Virus record (IMG/VR): IMGVR_UViG_3300050026_000241
DNA from: a virus
Taxonomy: Duplodnaviria > Heunggongvirae > Uroviricota > Caudoviricetes
Length of the DNA stretch: 33,254 nucleotides
Direction: 5' to 3' (one strand)
This document shows positions 14,205-32,714 of this stretch, piece after piece. Position 1 is the stretch's first letter, and each line of letters opens with the position of its first letter. The position numbers were made by a program, and so were the translations under genes. The notes beneath the pieces are model-generated. The model was given only the letters and a program-made list of their open reading frames with translations, searched no databases and was not told the DNA's origin.

Positions 14205-14278
14205 GGCAACAAAGTGACGAAGGTTGAGCACGCCTGCCTGTTTGGCAGTGGGGCTTGGTTCGATTCCAGGTGTTGCCG
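14205..14278 (+). tRNA. degenerate tRNA-like gene, anticodon GTT
   Basis: Acceptor GGCAACA/TGTTGCC, T-arm CTTGG-TTCGATT-CCAGG, anticodon arm CCTGC-CTGTTTG-GCAGT, G73. Non-canonical A8, U37 and G38, and an imperfect D-stem. Confidence 0.65.
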
Positions 14279-14323
14279 CTGACTTGTTCCGTTTGATTAA
14301 CCCTGACCTTGTGGAGAGTTACC

Positions 14324-14623
<300 letters not shown>

Positions 14624-14671
14624 TCGTCCTGAATGAAACATTGCCGGTCTCGCGTCACGCGGCCGGCACCT

Positions 14672-14744
14672 TCCGGGGTGGCGCAGTTGGTAGCGCAAAT
14701 GATTGTTAATCATTGGGTCGGGAGTTCAAGCCTCTCCCCCGGAG
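14672..14744 (+). tRNA. tRNA-Asn(GTT)
   Basis: Acceptor TCCGGGG/CCCCGGA, D-stem GCGC/GCGC, anticodon arm AATGA-TTGTTAA-TCATT, T-arm GGGAG-TTCAAGC-CTCTC, G73. A GC-rich hairpin lies just upstream (14642-14668). Confidence 0.93.
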
Positions 14745-14758
14745 CTTCTAAGTGTATC

Positions 14759-14895
14759 ACACGGGAACCGGGTGGGGAACCCCGGATCGGCCTCGAACCC
14801 CAATGAGACCGATGGTAATACGATGGAGTGAGGCTTGTAAGGGGACGCCGCTCATTAGTCAATGCCCGCTGGTTCAATCCCAGCCCTGTGTGCCA
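14759..14895 (+). tRNA. tRNA-Ser(CGA)-like gene with a 48-nt insertion in the anticodon loop (137 nt, CCA encoded)
   Basis: Acceptor ACACGGG/CCTGTGT, G73 and CCA; D-stem CCGG/CCGG; TCGGC-CT-CGA-A; insert of about 14799-14846; GCCGC; variable arm CATT-AGTC-AATG; T-arm GCTGG-TTCAATC-CCAGC. Confidence 0.65.
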
Positions 14896-14897
14896 AT

Positions 14898-14968
14898 AGC
14901 CCCGTAGTCCAGTGGTAGGTCGAGGCCATTAAGAGTCCTAAGCGTGGGTTCGATTCCCACCGGGGCCA
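14898..14968 (+). tRNA. atypical tRNA with a TAA (Leu) anticodon on a short-variable-loop scaffold
   Basis: GCCCCG/CGGGGC stem with an A1:C72 mismatch, T-arm GTGGG-TTCGATT-CCCAC, anticodon arm AGGCC-ATTAAGA-GTCCT (one mismatch), 4-nt variable loop. Confidence 0.6.
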
Positions 14969-14987
14969 TTAACTTTTGGAGAAGATC

Positions 14988-15767
14988 ATGCAGACATTCG
15001 TAGTTTCCGATTTTCATTTGTGCGATACCGGACCCAGGGATCGCTTCAACTTTGGCGACCGGCCGGCGAAGTTCAACCGCTTCCTCGATTTCGTCGGGGA
15101 CCAAGGCGGCAGGCTGATTATCGCGGGCGACTTGTTCGACCTGTGGCAGTGCAACTTTAGCCGAGCGATTGAGGCTAACTTACCGTTGTTAGATCGGCTG
15201 GCCGCGATGGGTGCCGTCTACGTTCTGGGCAATCACGATTGCGACTTGCGACAATTCACCGGCAAGCACTTCCTGAACCATCCGCTGTTTGACAACATGG
15301 TGACGCCGTTCGTCTTGAATGTCAACGACAAGATGATTAGGATTTGCCACGGCCACGAGGCTGACGCATACTGTGCGATCGAGCAACCCGGCATCGGCCG
15401 AATGACGGCTATCCTCACCGGCCTCTTGGAAGACAAGAACGGCGGCCCGATGAAGGGCAAGTTCAGTGTCGAAGAGTTGTCGGTCGGCGTGTTGGAGAAG
15501 TTGGTCAAGTGGCATGAAAAACTTTGGCATCGCCCCCAGAGAGATATTACCCTGATCGACGGTCTGCATCAGTATATCGACAAGGGCGAGTGTGACATTG
15601 TAGTAGCCGGTCACACGCATACGCCGGGCCGTAAAGGCAACTGGTACTTCAACTCCGGCTGCTGGTGTCTTCGCACGGACAGTTTTGTGTGGATCAACGA
15701 CGATGGTGTCAGAGTGTGGGACTGGGATGGCAACAGGCCGGTGCCGAACAACATCGTCTTGGGGTAG
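14988..15767 (+). CDS. calcineurin-like metallophosphoesterase (LpxH/YbbF-like motif set)
   Basis: VSDFH, AGDLFDLW, GNHD, HGHEAD, GHTH and YFNSGCW motifs. GGAG upstream. Confidence 0.85.
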   Translation: MQTFVVSDFHLCDTGPRDRFNFGDRPAKFNRFLDFVGDQGGRLIIAGDLFDLWQCNFSRAIEANLPLLDRLAAMGAVYVLGNHDCDLRQFTGKHFLNHPLFDNMVTPFVLNVNDKMIRICHGHEADAYCAIEQPGIGRMTAILTGLLEDKNGGPMKGKFSVEELSVGVLEKLVKWHEKLWHRPQRDITLIDGLHQYIDKGECDIVVAGHTHTPGRKGNWYFNSGCWCLRTDSFVWINDDGVRVWDWDGNRPVPNNIVLG

Positions 15768-28295: not shown

Positions 28296-28868
28296 ATGTC
28301 TCTACGCATTTGCTTTTTCGGTGGTCCGGGTGTTGGGAAATCCACCTTGGCGGCGCAGTTGTTCGGCTGGTTGAAGGCCGAGAACTTCGACGCCGAGTTG
28401 GTGCAAGAGTTCGTCAAAACTTGGGCGTACCAACAGCGGCGGTTGAAGTCGTTCGATCACGTCTTCACGTTCGCCAGCCAACTTCATACTGAAGACCTAT
28501 ACTTGCAATCCGGTGTGAATATAATCGTTACCGACTCACCTGTATTGCTACAGGTGATGTACCAGTATATGCGCCAACTGCCCGGTCAGGTTGAAATGCG
28601 GCATGTCGCGGAATTGTTTGAAGACCAACACCCGTCGATCAACTTTCTGGTGAAGCGGAAGGTTGACTACAAACCGCAGGGCCGTTACGAAACACCGGAG
28701 GCCGCCGCAGCGATTCACGATCGGATCGTCAGGTATCTGGACCAGTGGAGCGTGCCTTTTACGGAGGTAGAGCCCGGCAACTTGTCAGCCGTGATTGACA
28801 TACTGGACGAAGAGTACGGTATCCGGCGAGCAGCCGGAATCAATGTTGATTCGTTCCTCAAACCTTGA
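28296..28868 (+). CDS. P-loop kinase/ATPase (AAA_28/NadR-like)
   Basis: ICFFGGPGVGKST, ELVQEFVK and IVTDSP motifs, plus GRYE near the C-terminus. Confidence 0.8.
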   Translation: MSLRICFFGGPGVGKSTLAAQLFGWLKAENFDAELVQEFVKTWAYQQRRLKSFDHVFTFASQLHTEDLYLQSGVNIIVTDSPVLLQVMYQYMRQLPGQVEMRHVAELFEDQHPSINFLVKRKVDYKPQGRYETPEAAAAIHDRIVRYLDQWSVPFTEVEPGNLSAVIDILDEEYGIRRAAGINVDSFLKP

Positions 28869-28875
28869 GAGACCC

Positions 28876-29103
28876 ATGTTCCATATTGAGCACAATACTG
28901 AAATCAGCCACGTCTTCACGTTCCAAGCACCGGAGGAAGTTGTGGCACTGTTTGACGAGCCCGAGGGTGTCGAACTTGACGGCGGCAACTTTGATATTGC
29001 CGCTGTTCGTGAACCGGGCGAACCTGCCAAACTCCGTCTGACTGTCATGGTTCGGGAGACCAAGACTCGTGGCGACACCGATCTTTCCAACGAAGAACCC
29101 TGA
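28876..29103 (+). CDS. small hypothetical protein
   Basis: ATG 28876 follows the kinase stop; 75 aa. Confidence 0.6.
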   Translation: MFHIEHNTEISHVFTFQAPEEVVALFDEPEGVELDGGNFDIAAVREPGEPAKLRLTVMVRETKTRGDTDLSNEEP

Positions 29104-29119
29104 AACCAAAGAGTATCTA

Positions 29120-30229
29120 ATGAGCGACATCATAATTAGCGTCGAGCGTATCAAATCCGTTGAGCCCCACCCACAGGCTGACCGCTTGGAGATTGCCAAG
29201 ATTCTTGGCACGCAATGCGTTGTGCCCAAAGGCGAACACAAGGCCGGCGAGAGTGTGGTCTTTTTCCCGCCCGACATGGTGCTGCCCGGCGACGTGAGTT
29301 TGCAGCTCGGCGTTCAGAAGTATCTCAAGCATTCGCTGGTCGAAGGCTTGAAGATTCCTTCGCGTGTGGCCGCCTGCCGTCTGCGTACTGTGGCCAGTTT
29401 CGGCTTCATTGCCAAACTGCCGCCTGAGTTGTCGCATTTGGCCGGGTGGGTCGGCACGGAGCAGGCCAACGTGACCGAGTTCTATCGTGGCTTCAAATAT
29501 GAGCCGCCCGCCGCGCCTCGCGGTGCGATGTGGGGCGGCATGGCCCCGGAACACCCGATGTTCCACCAGTATACCGATATTCAGAATCACTATCGTTACC
29601 CGGACGCGATTCCGACCGGAACCATTGTCCGCGTGACCGAGAAGATTGACGGAACCAATAGCCGGGCTGGCGTGGTCTATTGCGACGGTGAATTCCAATT
29701 CATGGCGGGCTCCCACAAGAAGAACCGCAAGAAGGAATTCGAGGGAGCGGCTTCGCTCTACTGGGAGCCGCTGGAAATTGAGGGCGTGCTGAACATGATT
29801 AACACGCTTTGCGACGGCCGCCGCAACATCGTTGTGTTCGGGGAGATTTACGGTCCCGGTGTTCAAGACCTGGATTACGGCATTCCGGCCGGTGACATCG
29901 GCTACCGGGTGTTCGACATTACGGACGACGGCGACTACCTGGACTTCGACATCGTGAAGGCCATGTGCGACAACAATGACGTGGAGTTGGTCCCGTTGCT
30001 GTACAAGGGTCCGTTCAGCCAGAGGATGGTTGAAGAGTTGACCAGCGGCCCGACGACTTTGGTGTCGCCCGAAGGCATCAAGAGCAAGTTCAAAGGCCGC
30101 GAGGGCATCGTCATTACGCCCGTGGTGGAAGCCTACAGCGAAATCCTGGGCGGCCGGATGATCCTCAAGAGCAAGTCCGCCGACTACCTTGATCGCAAGG
30201 GCGCGGAAGACAACGGGGAGGCCGAGTAA
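29120..30229 (+). CDS. RNA ligase, DRB0094/Rnl5-like
   Basis: N-terminal IKSVEPHPQADRLEIA domain, then nucleotidyltransferase motifs TEKIDGTN, FGEIYG, FDI, EGIV and LKSKS. Confidence 0.88.
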   Translation: MSDIIISVERIKSVEPHPQADRLEIAKILGTQCVVPKGEHKAGESVVFFPPDMVLPGDVSLQLGVQKYLKHSLVEGLKIPSRVAACRLRTVASFGFIAKLPPELSHLAGWVGTEQANVTEFYRGFKYEPPAAPRGAMWGGMAPEHPMFHQYTDIQNHYRYPDAIPTGTIVRVTEKIDGTNSRAGVVYCDGEFQFMAGSHKKNRKKEFEGAASLYWEPLEIEGVLNMINTLCDGRRNIVVFGEIYGPGVQDLDYGIPAGDIGYRVFDITDDGDYLDFDIVKAMCDNNDVELVPLLYKGPFSQRMVEELTSGPTTLVSPEGIKSKFKGREGIVITPVVEAYSEILGGRMILKSKSADYLDRKGAEDNGEAE

Positions 30230-31609: not shown

Positions 31610-32352
31610 TCCTCCCCTCTGCCGATGTCATGTACGCCAATGCAATGGCCCGTCCCGCCGAGATCAAGCGGGAAGTTGCCCGCAAGATCAATGAACGGGC
31701 CTGCGGCGTGAAACGAATCGCCGCCGCCCTGGACTTGGCCGTCTTGAAGCCCACGGCGGGCCGACGCGATGTTGAGGTCGCCGCCGCCCTGGTGAATCAG
31801 CACGGCATTTGCTCGTTATGCGTGCCGTCCAGTTTCGTGCCGCTCGCCAGCAACTTGACCGCCCGAGTTTGCTCCGTGGTCGGTTTTCCACACGGCAATT
31901 CGTGTATCACGGCCAAAGTCGATGAAGCCGGAGAGGCCCTCTACTATGGGGCGGTTGAGTTGGACATTGTGGTCAGCTACGGGCGTTTCATGGAAGGCAA
32001 CCCCGATCCGGTAGTTTCCGAGTTGACTCAGATCGTCAATATCGCTCACGCCCGACGAGCTATCGTTAAGGCGATCTTGGAAACGTGCTGCCTGTCCCTG
32101 CCACAGATTGCCGATCTGTGTCGGCTGTGTGCGGACTGCGGCGTTGACTATGTGAAAACGTCAACCGGGTTCAGCACGGGCGGTGCGGATACGATGGGTG
32201 TGCGGTGTATGCTCGACACTGTTGGCAGCCGTTGTTTGGTCAAGGCAAGCGGCGGTATTGATTGCTATGAGAAGGCGAAGATGTTTCTCGACATGGGCTG
32301 TGCCCGTATCGGGGCATCCAAGTACCTTGAACTTTTACCATCCTGGGGGTGA
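31594..32352 (+). CDS. deoC: deoxyribose-phosphate aldolase
   Basis: VGFPHG, ELDIV, VKAILET, DYVKTSTGF, VKASGGI and RIGAS motifs. Start taken as GTG 31594; ATG 31630 is an alternative. Confidence 0.9.
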   Translation: MSDKLILPSADVMYANAMARPAEIKREVARKINERACGVKRIAAALDLAVLKPTAGRRDVEVAAALVNQHGICSLCVPSSFVPLASNLTARVCSVVGFPHGNSCITAKVDEAGEALYYGAVELDIVVSYGRFMEGNPDPVVSELTQIVNIAHARRAIVKAILETCCLSLPQIADLCRLCADCGVDYVKTSTGFSTGGADTMGVRCMLDTVGSRCLVKASGGIDCYEKAKMFLDMGCARIGASKYLELLPSWG

Positions 32353-32698
32353 ATTGGAATCGACCGGGCAGGTTGAAGTGTAGGTTGCGTTCCGTGGTTG
32401 GTCGGCAGGCCACGATAAAAGCCGACCACAAAGTAGACGCCACTAATCAAATGGCAATGGCGGCCTAGCACCGCCCCGGTTGATGGTCTTCGTCGGAGAG
32501 ACTTGACTACCGGCTGTAATTCCGAATCGCCTGGGTGAGAATCGGCGGAACCTGGGCTAAACAACTCAGCCGAATGGTCAGACGGGAACCCTGTCGGTTC
32601 GGGGACGCGAGACGACGATTGCAAATAGAATCGACTATCGAACGTAGACGCTTACATGGAAATGTCACGGGACCGGGGTTCAATCCCCCGCGCCTCCA
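32345..32698 (+). ncRNA. ssrA: tmRNA
   Basis: Acceptor GGGGGTG/CGCCTCC with G3-U70 and A73; GGAATCGAC; pseudoknot 1 with stems CGTGG/CCACG and TGGTCGGC/GCCGACCA; T-arm CGGGG-TTCAATC-CCCCG. No encoded CCA. Confidence 0.93.
32439..32468 (+). other. tmRNA tag reading frame ATNQMAMAA-stop
   Basis: GCC ACT AAT CAA ATG GCA ATG GCG GCC TAG follows pseudoknot 1 and ends in Ala-Ala. The resume codon is inferred from position. Confidence 0.8.
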
Positions 32699-32714
32699 CT
32701 TTGAAAGAAAGCCT

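Follow-up and report, generated by a model that had tools for sequence, protein, structure and literature searches.

A gene derived from a tRNA, with an insert in its anticodon loop, lies in the tRNA cluster of a bacterial virus, and comparison with its relatives supports the view that it is functional, because its helices covary and its sequence bears the marks of purifying selection. The element is 137 nt long and occupies positions 14759-14895 of the window, by which is meant the whole stretch of 33,254 nt that was analysed, itself taken from a virus record of 69.5 kb. Comparison among relatives speaks against simple splicing of this RNA, and the best explanation, to which we give an even chance, is an end-processed tRNA mimic that would function with the insert in place and would not act as a decoder.

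The window covers a replication and nucleotide-metabolism region, and among its products are a family A DNA polymerase, a primase-helicase, ParB-like proteins, a DNA ligase and two DNA methyltransferases. Genes for an AAA_28 P-loop protein (28296-28868), a metallophosphoesterase and an RNA ligase (29069-30229) are also present, the last having an N-terminal OB domain and the Naegleria Rnl5-type ligase as its closest solved relative (NgrRnl-like). The host is taken to be a bacterium because an Rfam search of the window found a bacterial tmRNA at 32345-32701 (120 bits). The element sits between two tRNA genes of a small tRNA cluster, directly after which comes the metallophosphoesterase gene (14988-15767), starting 93 nt downstream of the element. 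The nearest named homologs of this protein are annotated as LpxH-like in public sources, and its named cellular matches belong to Planctomycetota (37-38% identity); a role in the healing of RNA ends is only a guess. Inspection of the genes around the cluster gave no candidate splicing endonuclease. A GC-rich hairpin, GCCGG ... CCGGC, lies at 14644-14668 between a very acidic ORF and the first tRNA, with the same sequence in L004 and L035, and possibly serves as a signal for processing or termination. The parts of the element and its two neighbours are listed here, lineages A, B and C being the three groups of related sequences described below.

14672-14745, plus strand: upstream neighbour, tRNA-Asn(GTT), found by ARAGORN and Rfam
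14759-14895, plus strand: whole tRNA-Ser-derived element with insert, 137 nt; cloverleaf after deletion, full-length homologs in 14 further contigs
14759-14765, plus strand: 5' strand of the acceptor stem, partner 14885-14891; 100% of cells paired
14768-14785, plus strand: D arm, a 5-bp stem of 14768-14772 with 14781-14785, GG in the loop, preceded by A8 and A9; in lineage C two of its pairs differ at both bases
14786-14798, plus strand: 5' half of the former anticodon arm, with strand 14787-14791, loop CTCGAAC at 14792-14798 and CGA at 14794-14796
14798-14801, plus strand: CCCC run with a possible GGGG partner at 14841-14844; CCC/GGG in lineages B and C, no covariation and so only compatible
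14799-14846, plus strand: insert, 48 nt (46 nt in lineages B and C); its removal yields the cloverleaf
14805-14813, plus strand: insert segment GAGACCGAT, pairing with 14786-14794 (former 5' strand and start of the loop) in eight pairs
14832-14834, plus strand: insert GGC, pairing with 14847-14849 (former 3' strand); middle pair changed from G:C to C:G in lineages B and C
14847-14851, plus strand: 3' strand of the former anticodon stem, GCCGC (GGCGC in lineages B and C)
14852-14867, plus strand: long variable region with a hairpin of 14853-14856 and 14861-14864; stem invariant, sole change in the loop
14868-14884, plus strand: T arm, 5-bp stem and loop TTCAATC (TTCGATT in lineages B and C)
14892-14895, plus strand: G73 and encoded CCA; G73 invariant, CAA in lineage C
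14897-14969, plus strand: downstream neighbour, a class-I tRNA of 73 nt with anticodon TAA, found by ARAGORN and Rfam

In its genomic form the element is not called as a tRNA by ARAGORN, whether in standard or intron mode or with the threshold set to 90%; what intron mode and relaxed thresholds did return were low-quality alternatives only. There is likewise no Rfam match at gathering thresholds, nor up to E=10 on the 161-nt region 14740-14900, so that the known ncRNA family which the sequence-only reading had named as a possible refutation did not turn up in Rfam. When 14799-14846 is deleted, ARAGORN at its default threshold calls an 89-nt class-II tRNA-Ser(CGA), as that reading had proposed, and the same call is obtained with the 48-nt deletion shifted by 1 or 2 nt, AC being present at both junctions, which can slide by 2 nt. 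The deleted form has a 7-bp acceptor, a 4/5 anticodon stem, the loop CT-CGA-AC, a 4-bp variable hairpin, a T arm, G73 and CCA, and the cloverleaf is the minimum-energy structure of the spliced 89-nt sequence. The other sequence features reported earlier were also found where they had been placed: the CCCC/GGGG bracket is present, GAGACCGAT pairs at 8 of 9 positions with ATCGGCCTC, A8 is there, and the D arm is atypical, its stem being a 5-bp helix that covariation now backs.

A tRNA call after a free choice of deletion is easily obtained. In shuffle controls that kept the acceptor, D and T parts fixed and shuffled the middle 81 nt, 157 of 300 shuffles were also called by ARAGORN for some deletion, and this procedure was rejected as a significance test because it is too lenient. 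Under strict geometric rules (Y32, U33, R37, at least 4 contiguous stem pairs adjoining the loop and a 4-bp variable hairpin), 91 of 20,000 shuffles passed; 63 of these were class II, and 21 had a Ser anticodon as well. It follows from the strict test that the ancestral gene was almost surely a class-II Ser-type tRNA that received an insert in its anticodon loop.

The present form nevertheless fits none of the familiar definitions in full. The 7-bp acceptor, 5-bp T stem, TTCRA T loop and D-loop GG of a canonical tRNA are all there, whereas a contiguous above-threshold cloverleaf is absent by ARAGORN and Rfam, and U8/A14 and a 3-4-bp D stem are replaced by A8, A9 and a 5-bp D stem that uses 14 and 21. 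G73 and a long variable arm are those of class-II tRNA-Ser (a 16-nt region with a 4-bp hairpin in all sequences, without covariation); a Ser anticodon within a 5-bp stem and 7-nt loop is obtained in lineage A only, and there only after removal of the insert. A strict bulge-helix-bulge, already judged missing in the sequence-only reading, is indeed not formed: read from the sequence, the best central helix reaches 3 of 4 pairs and an inner helix is lacking, and in place of two 3-nt bulges with 4 bp between them CCCC:GGGG is offset by 6 nt and 2 nt from the stem. Nor is the insert a group I or II intron, being only 48 nt long and giving no Rfam match to E=10; a small self-cleaving ribozyme core was equally absent from that search, and a hammerhead core was absent on reading by eye.

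Relatives were retrieved with the adjacent phosphoesterase gene as a handle. The complete element, including the insert, is found in 15 contigs (the window and 14 others) from many samples, as five distinct sequences in three lineages. Lineage A comprises the window, L039 and L040, which are identical, and L004, L034, L041 and L042, which share one change; lineage B comprises L005 and L008; lineage C comprises L044, L045, L048, L050 and L052, together with L046, which has one further change. The neighbouring genes differ among the three lineages in which the element is kept. Many relatives of the same group have no element, including a complete 113.8-kb genome and L035, whose phosphoesterase shares a 90% cluster with that of lineage C. 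In two contigs (L047:1436-1489 and L049:126-179) only the last ~55 nt are left, covering the insert end, exon 2 and the 3' end and identical to lineage C; because the 5' two-thirds of the element have been lost there, along with about 480 nt upstream, the element is dispensable in both. Insert-less alleles, which the earlier reading had suggested seeking, were not found in 52 related loci, and pattern scans of viral and genome contigs, with patterns for each half (5' and 3'), for the core of the insert and for the spliced junction, gave no insert-less or host copy. A search of a phage collection returned tRNA-Asn matches only. Relatives that lack the element can still carry the RNA ligase and the phosphoesterase. 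The connection with the phage RNA ligase drawn in the earlier reading is therefore not specific, the complete relative without the element having a ligase too, and the enzyme was set aside as a specific partner. The homolog in a complete related genome (G001:C1:25498-26610) can be aligned with window 29069-30229 along 374 residues (73% identity) and contains one in-frame TGA.

The tRNA clusters of these viruses hold other irregular genes, and their gene content varies even among close relatives. The class-I tRNA next to the element (window 14897-14969) is one homologous gene among relatives, with covarying acceptor stems (L005:1073-1145; L035:2410-2479, 1995-2064; L036:544-613; L037:15-84; L043:2413-2482; L044:1910-1979). 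Its anticodon is TAA in the window and GAA in lineage B; other relatives have TCA or TTA, together with an anticodon region shorter by 2 nt. These tRNAs may act as suppressors, of the missense or nonsense type. Another class-II tRNA, of 87-88 nt, combines a Tyr/Leu-like body (long variable arm, A73) with the Asn anticodon GTT, a mismatch of body and anticodon (L004:865-952; L034:1409-1496; L044:1208-1294; L014:1817-1903). Homing-endonuclease-like ORFs of the HNH, His-Me or AP2 type lie inside the relatives' cluster (L005:335-928, L035 about 2070-2400, L036:666-1184). In the window itself, a second irregular tRNA-like sequence at 14205-14279 has a 4-bp T stem and the anticodon loop CTGTTTG, with a pyrimidine at 37; ARAGORN reports it only when the threshold is lowered, and BLAST found no homolog of it in the related loci.

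The body of the element has changed in ways that keep its helices. The acceptor stem is fully paired in the five sequences, the changes at 4:69 (CG to UG) and 5:68 (GU to AU) preserving pairing, and in lineage C two D-stem pairs have changed on both sides, 13:24 from GC to UA and 10:27 from CG to GU. Changes in the T loop are confined to positions 57 and 60, and the variable-arm stem is invariant, the single change falling in the loop. The check for covariation in relatives thus came out in favour of the tRNA body. As a neutral yardstick, the four-fold degenerate sites of the adjacent phosphoesterase gene were used, where values are even along the gene. The differences counted were as follows.

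Lineage A versus its one-change variant: four-fold sites 27/89, insert 0/48, upper body 1/71
Lineage A versus lineage B: four-fold sites 33/82, insert 8/48, upper body 3/71
Lineage A versus lineage C: four-fold sites 33/83, insert 8/48, upper body 9/71
Lineage B versus lineage C: four-fold sites 40/97, insert 5/47, upper body 6/71

Divergence of the insert is 0-17%, compared with 30-41% at synonymous sites of the next gene (Fisher P for insert versus four-fold sites 2e-6 to 0.006), and against the adjacent synonymous sites body and insert are less diverged by a factor of 3-40 for the closest pair and of 2.5-4 for the other pairs. Among the exon parts the former anticodon arm is conserved least (3/18 and 4/18), and it is kept no better than the insert. 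The insert is conserved about as well as the exons and is not junk. Judged by these substitution patterns the gene is under selection, and a pseudogene is very unlikely because body and insert diverge less than the four-fold sites.

The part of the tRNA that has not been preserved is the anticodon stem. Position 40 is G in lineages B and C, so that the G30:C40 pair becomes G.G, which is uncompensated within the tRNA, and U27.C43 is mismatched in every lineage; over the five sequences 68% of the cells of the canonical anticodon stem are paired. In lineages B and C an anticodon arm cannot be regained by any in-loop deletion, even under a relaxed three-pair rule. Lineage A has CGA as the triplet at 34-36, lineage B CGC and lineage C CCC, positions 35 and 36 being variable and 32-34, 37 and 38 fixed, with the loop frame CU-NNN-AC kept in all lineages. 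A canonical stem and the CGA triplet are restricted to the lineage of the window, and the encoded CCA is CAA in lineage C. The changing triplet is not proof that the RNA does not decode, because the neighbouring ordinary tRNA also switches its anticodon. The tRNA-like body, on the other hand, has stayed under selection without a normal anticodon stem, since the D-stem compensations arose in lineage C, where such a stem cannot be made. Of the two readings offered at the outset, a tRNA dependent on splicing and a tRNA-like RNA, the former does not hold up well, since the anticodon stem, whose conservation in homologs had been proposed as its check, is broken in two of the three lineages; the latter fits better.

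The strands of the former stem are instead complementary to the insert. The helix 14805-14813:14786-14794 has eight pairs, with 97.5% of cells paired, and holds in all sequences with the exception of one cell. The helix 14832-14834:14847-14849 has G:C as its middle pair in A but C:G in the other two lineages, so that C40G, the change that breaks the tRNA stem, is exactly compensated inside the insert by a change from G to C and the helix (74-76:89-91) is kept. This support for insert-exon pairing amounts to a single compensatory pair, one event on one branch, with an estimated chance occurrence of about 0.15, and G75C also improves an alternative local hairpin. The C-run at 14798-14801 and the G-run at 14841-14844 fall in the loops of the two exon-insert helices and shrink jointly from 4 to 3 in B and C. 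A masked model composed of the exon-insert helices and the variable hairpin has 99.4% of its cells paired. In the unspliced RNA of all variants the predicted pairing probability of the canonical anticodon stem is near 0, and forcing the cloverleaf on it has a predicted cost of 10-12 kcal/mol. The dominant predicted fold of the lower domain differs among lineages, with GGCCUC:GAGGCU in A and AUCGG:CCGAU in B, and for this reason no single predicted fold is relied on. RNAalifold also proposes a long-range helix, 56-63:100-108, in competition with the variable-arm hairpin. Three one-sided changes are consistent with this helix, none of them compensatory.

If the element is a tRNA mimic, its RNA would be transcribed together with the neighbouring tRNAs and, because the upper body is tRNA-like, would be excised by RNase P and the 3' trimming enzymes. 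It would then fold into a tRNA upper body joined to a remodelled lower domain of two exon-insert helices, with a possible contact between their loops through the C-run and the G-run. From a fold with an intact upper body would follow recognition by proteins that read this part of a tRNA, possibly including SerRS through G73 and the long variable arm, and the remodelled RNA would presumably be unable to pair with a codon on the ribosome. One guess at its role is that of a decoy or sponge, directed at a factor of the infected cell that binds tRNA, e.g., a tRNA-directed defence nuclease. In favour of the mimic are the retention of the acceptor, the 5-bp D stem, the T arm and the variable arm when only one lineage of the three allows a normal anticodon arm to be rebuilt, and the complementarity of the insert to each strand of the former stem. 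Against it, removal of the insert from lineage A leaves a clean class-II tRNA in which CGA, G73 and the variable arm all speak for Ser, and U33, A37 and C38 are kept across lineages; insert-exon pairing has only its one compensatory pair, the predicted lower-domain folds vary by lineage, and the element is dispensable in the two contigs that lack its 5' two-thirds.

The insert could also be the intron of a protein-spliced pre-tRNA, masking the anticodon stem until nucleases cut both junctions and an Rnl5-type ligase reseals the ends, which we regard as possible though unlikely. Nucleases and end-healing enzymes of host or phage would yield a Ser-accepting product, with CGA here and CGC or CCC elsewhere. 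The exact restoration in lineage A of a class-II cloverleaf with a coherent Ser identity is what such splicing would give, as is the CU-NNN-AC frame of all lineages; the position in the anticodon loop recalls the published and likewise highly conserved introns of Lak megaphage tRNAs (PMC6784885). SerRS, moreover, ignores the anticodon (PMC5389517), and the normal neighbouring tRNA switches its anticodon too. The NgrRnl-like ligase, the AAA_28 P-loop protein and the metallophosphoesterase of the window could supply the enzymes, although ligase and phosphoesterase are equally present in relatives without the element and no candidate endonuclease was found near the cluster. Against splicing, lineages B and C are under selection and yet have no formable anticodon stem after any in-loop deletion, and the stem-breaking change was compensated in the insert and not in the tRNA. 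The insert is as conserved as the exons, which would not give a functional tRNA in all carriers, two of the three lineages failing in this respect; there is no bulge-helix-bulge, ribozyme or Rfam match, and no insert-less allele in the related loci or the pattern scans. More specifically, the insert might cage a Ser-accepting tRNA, inactive until phage or host enzymes cut the insert out and the Rnl5-type ligase reseals the RNA, which is improbable. Such caging, if true, would mean protein-dependent tRNA splicing in a bacterial system, and with the CGA, CGC and CCC anticodons a deliberate missense tRNA in some phages.

Two further explanations give the RNA no role. A tRNA-Ser gene killed by the insertion and drifting neutrally, which is very improbable, would account for the silence of the tRNA finder and Rfam, for the degraded decoding parts in two lineages and for the 3' remnants in L047 and L049, in a very fluid tRNA cluster with homing-endonuclease genes; decay does not produce two compensatory D-stem pairs and acceptor changes that preserve pairing, hold body and insert below the divergence of adjacent synonymous sites, or retain the element in three lineages with different neighbour genes. 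The insert may alternatively be the footprint of a mobile element, either as its remnant or as an insertion that confers immunity by interrupting the target of a homing endonuclease in the tRNA gene, and this is the last explanation that we would expect to hold. HNH, His-Me and AP2-type endonuclease ORFs do lie in the relatives' tRNA cluster, that of L005 ending 9 nt before the element, and the AC repeat stands at both junctions. The insert, however, is present in single copy in the genome and related loci, with no repeats elsewhere, and was for this reason rejected as a repeated or mobile element; its inverted ends are 4 nt only, and DNA-level immunity would leave the selection on RNA helices, covariation included, unexplained. 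An attP-type tRNA fragment was likewise rejected, since it leaves the presence of the 5' half unexplained.

Several known systems share features with the element. The protein-spliced tRNA introns of archaea and eukaryotes are cut at a bulge-helix-bulge by EndA or TSEN and joined by RtcB or Trl1. The insert resembles them in its 37/38-compatible position, in its size range and in pairing with the anticodon region, and differs from them in lacking a bulge-helix-bulge, in its bacterial host, in its strong conservation and in that the mature stem is not preserved. Protein-dependent tRNA splicing is not known to occur in bacteria or their viruses, and if the element were spliced after all it would offer a compact, testable substrate for a new bacterial pathway of RNA cutting and joining. 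Group I introns are found in the anticodon loops of bacterial tRNAs, e.g., cyanobacterial tRNA-Leu(UAA) and tRNA-fMet, where P1 and P10 pair with the exon ends. The likeness lies in an anticodon-loop insertion in a bacterial-type tRNA with insert segments that pair with both exon ends, whereas 48 nt is too small for a catalytic core and no Rfam intron or ribozyme matches. The bacterial YrlA is a non-coding RNA that mimics a tRNA, its 5' and 3' ends forming a protein-binding stem and not an acceptor stem. Like YrlA, the element has a tRNA-like upper body on what would be a non-decoding RNA; unlike it, the ends of the element form an acceptor stem, and the element has no Rfam match. The element is therefore outside the canonical tRNAs, the bulge-helix-bulge introns, the group I and II introns and any Rfam family.

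Closer parallels come from irregular tRNAs of bacteria and phages. Allo-tRNAs and irregular tRNA polycistrons have been described in Acidobacteria and phages (Mukai et al., 2017, PMC5389517; reviewed in PMC7609411), and some of the irregular Ser-type tRNAs have extra stems, are inactive in translation and have been proposed to be regulatory RNAs (PMC5389517). The element shares with these the Ser-type identity given by G73 and a long variable arm, a long D stem, freely varying anticodons (PMC5389517) and a location in a tRNA cluster. It differs in its 7/5 acceptor/T branch, which is neither 8/4 nor 9/3, and in its 46-48-nt anticodon-loop insert, which was not described in that work. The 'enigmatic' introns of Lak megaphages (Devoto et al., 2019) are short, non-self-splicing anticodon-loop inserts in tRNA genes with sequences highly conserved between genomes; alleles with and without insert are known in Lak phages, and one insert is itself tRNA-like (PMC6784885). 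Common to both systems is a phage tRNA-type gene whose anticodon loop contains a short, conserved, non-self-splicing insert. In contrast to the Lak phages, no insert-less allele was found here, the phage group and the insert sequence are unrelated, the insert pairs with both strands of the anticodon stem, and two of the three lineages give no normal tRNA after excision. Selection that keeps the tRNA upper body and the insert, and not the mature anticodon arm, points to phage tRNA mimics with a remodelled anticodon branch. Should such a class be real, some "phage tRNA introns" would not be introns, and care would be needed with counts of phage tRNAs and with arguments about codon supply. Descriptively, the element belongs with the 'enigmatic' anticodon-loop inserts of phage tRNAs, and the element itself is new.
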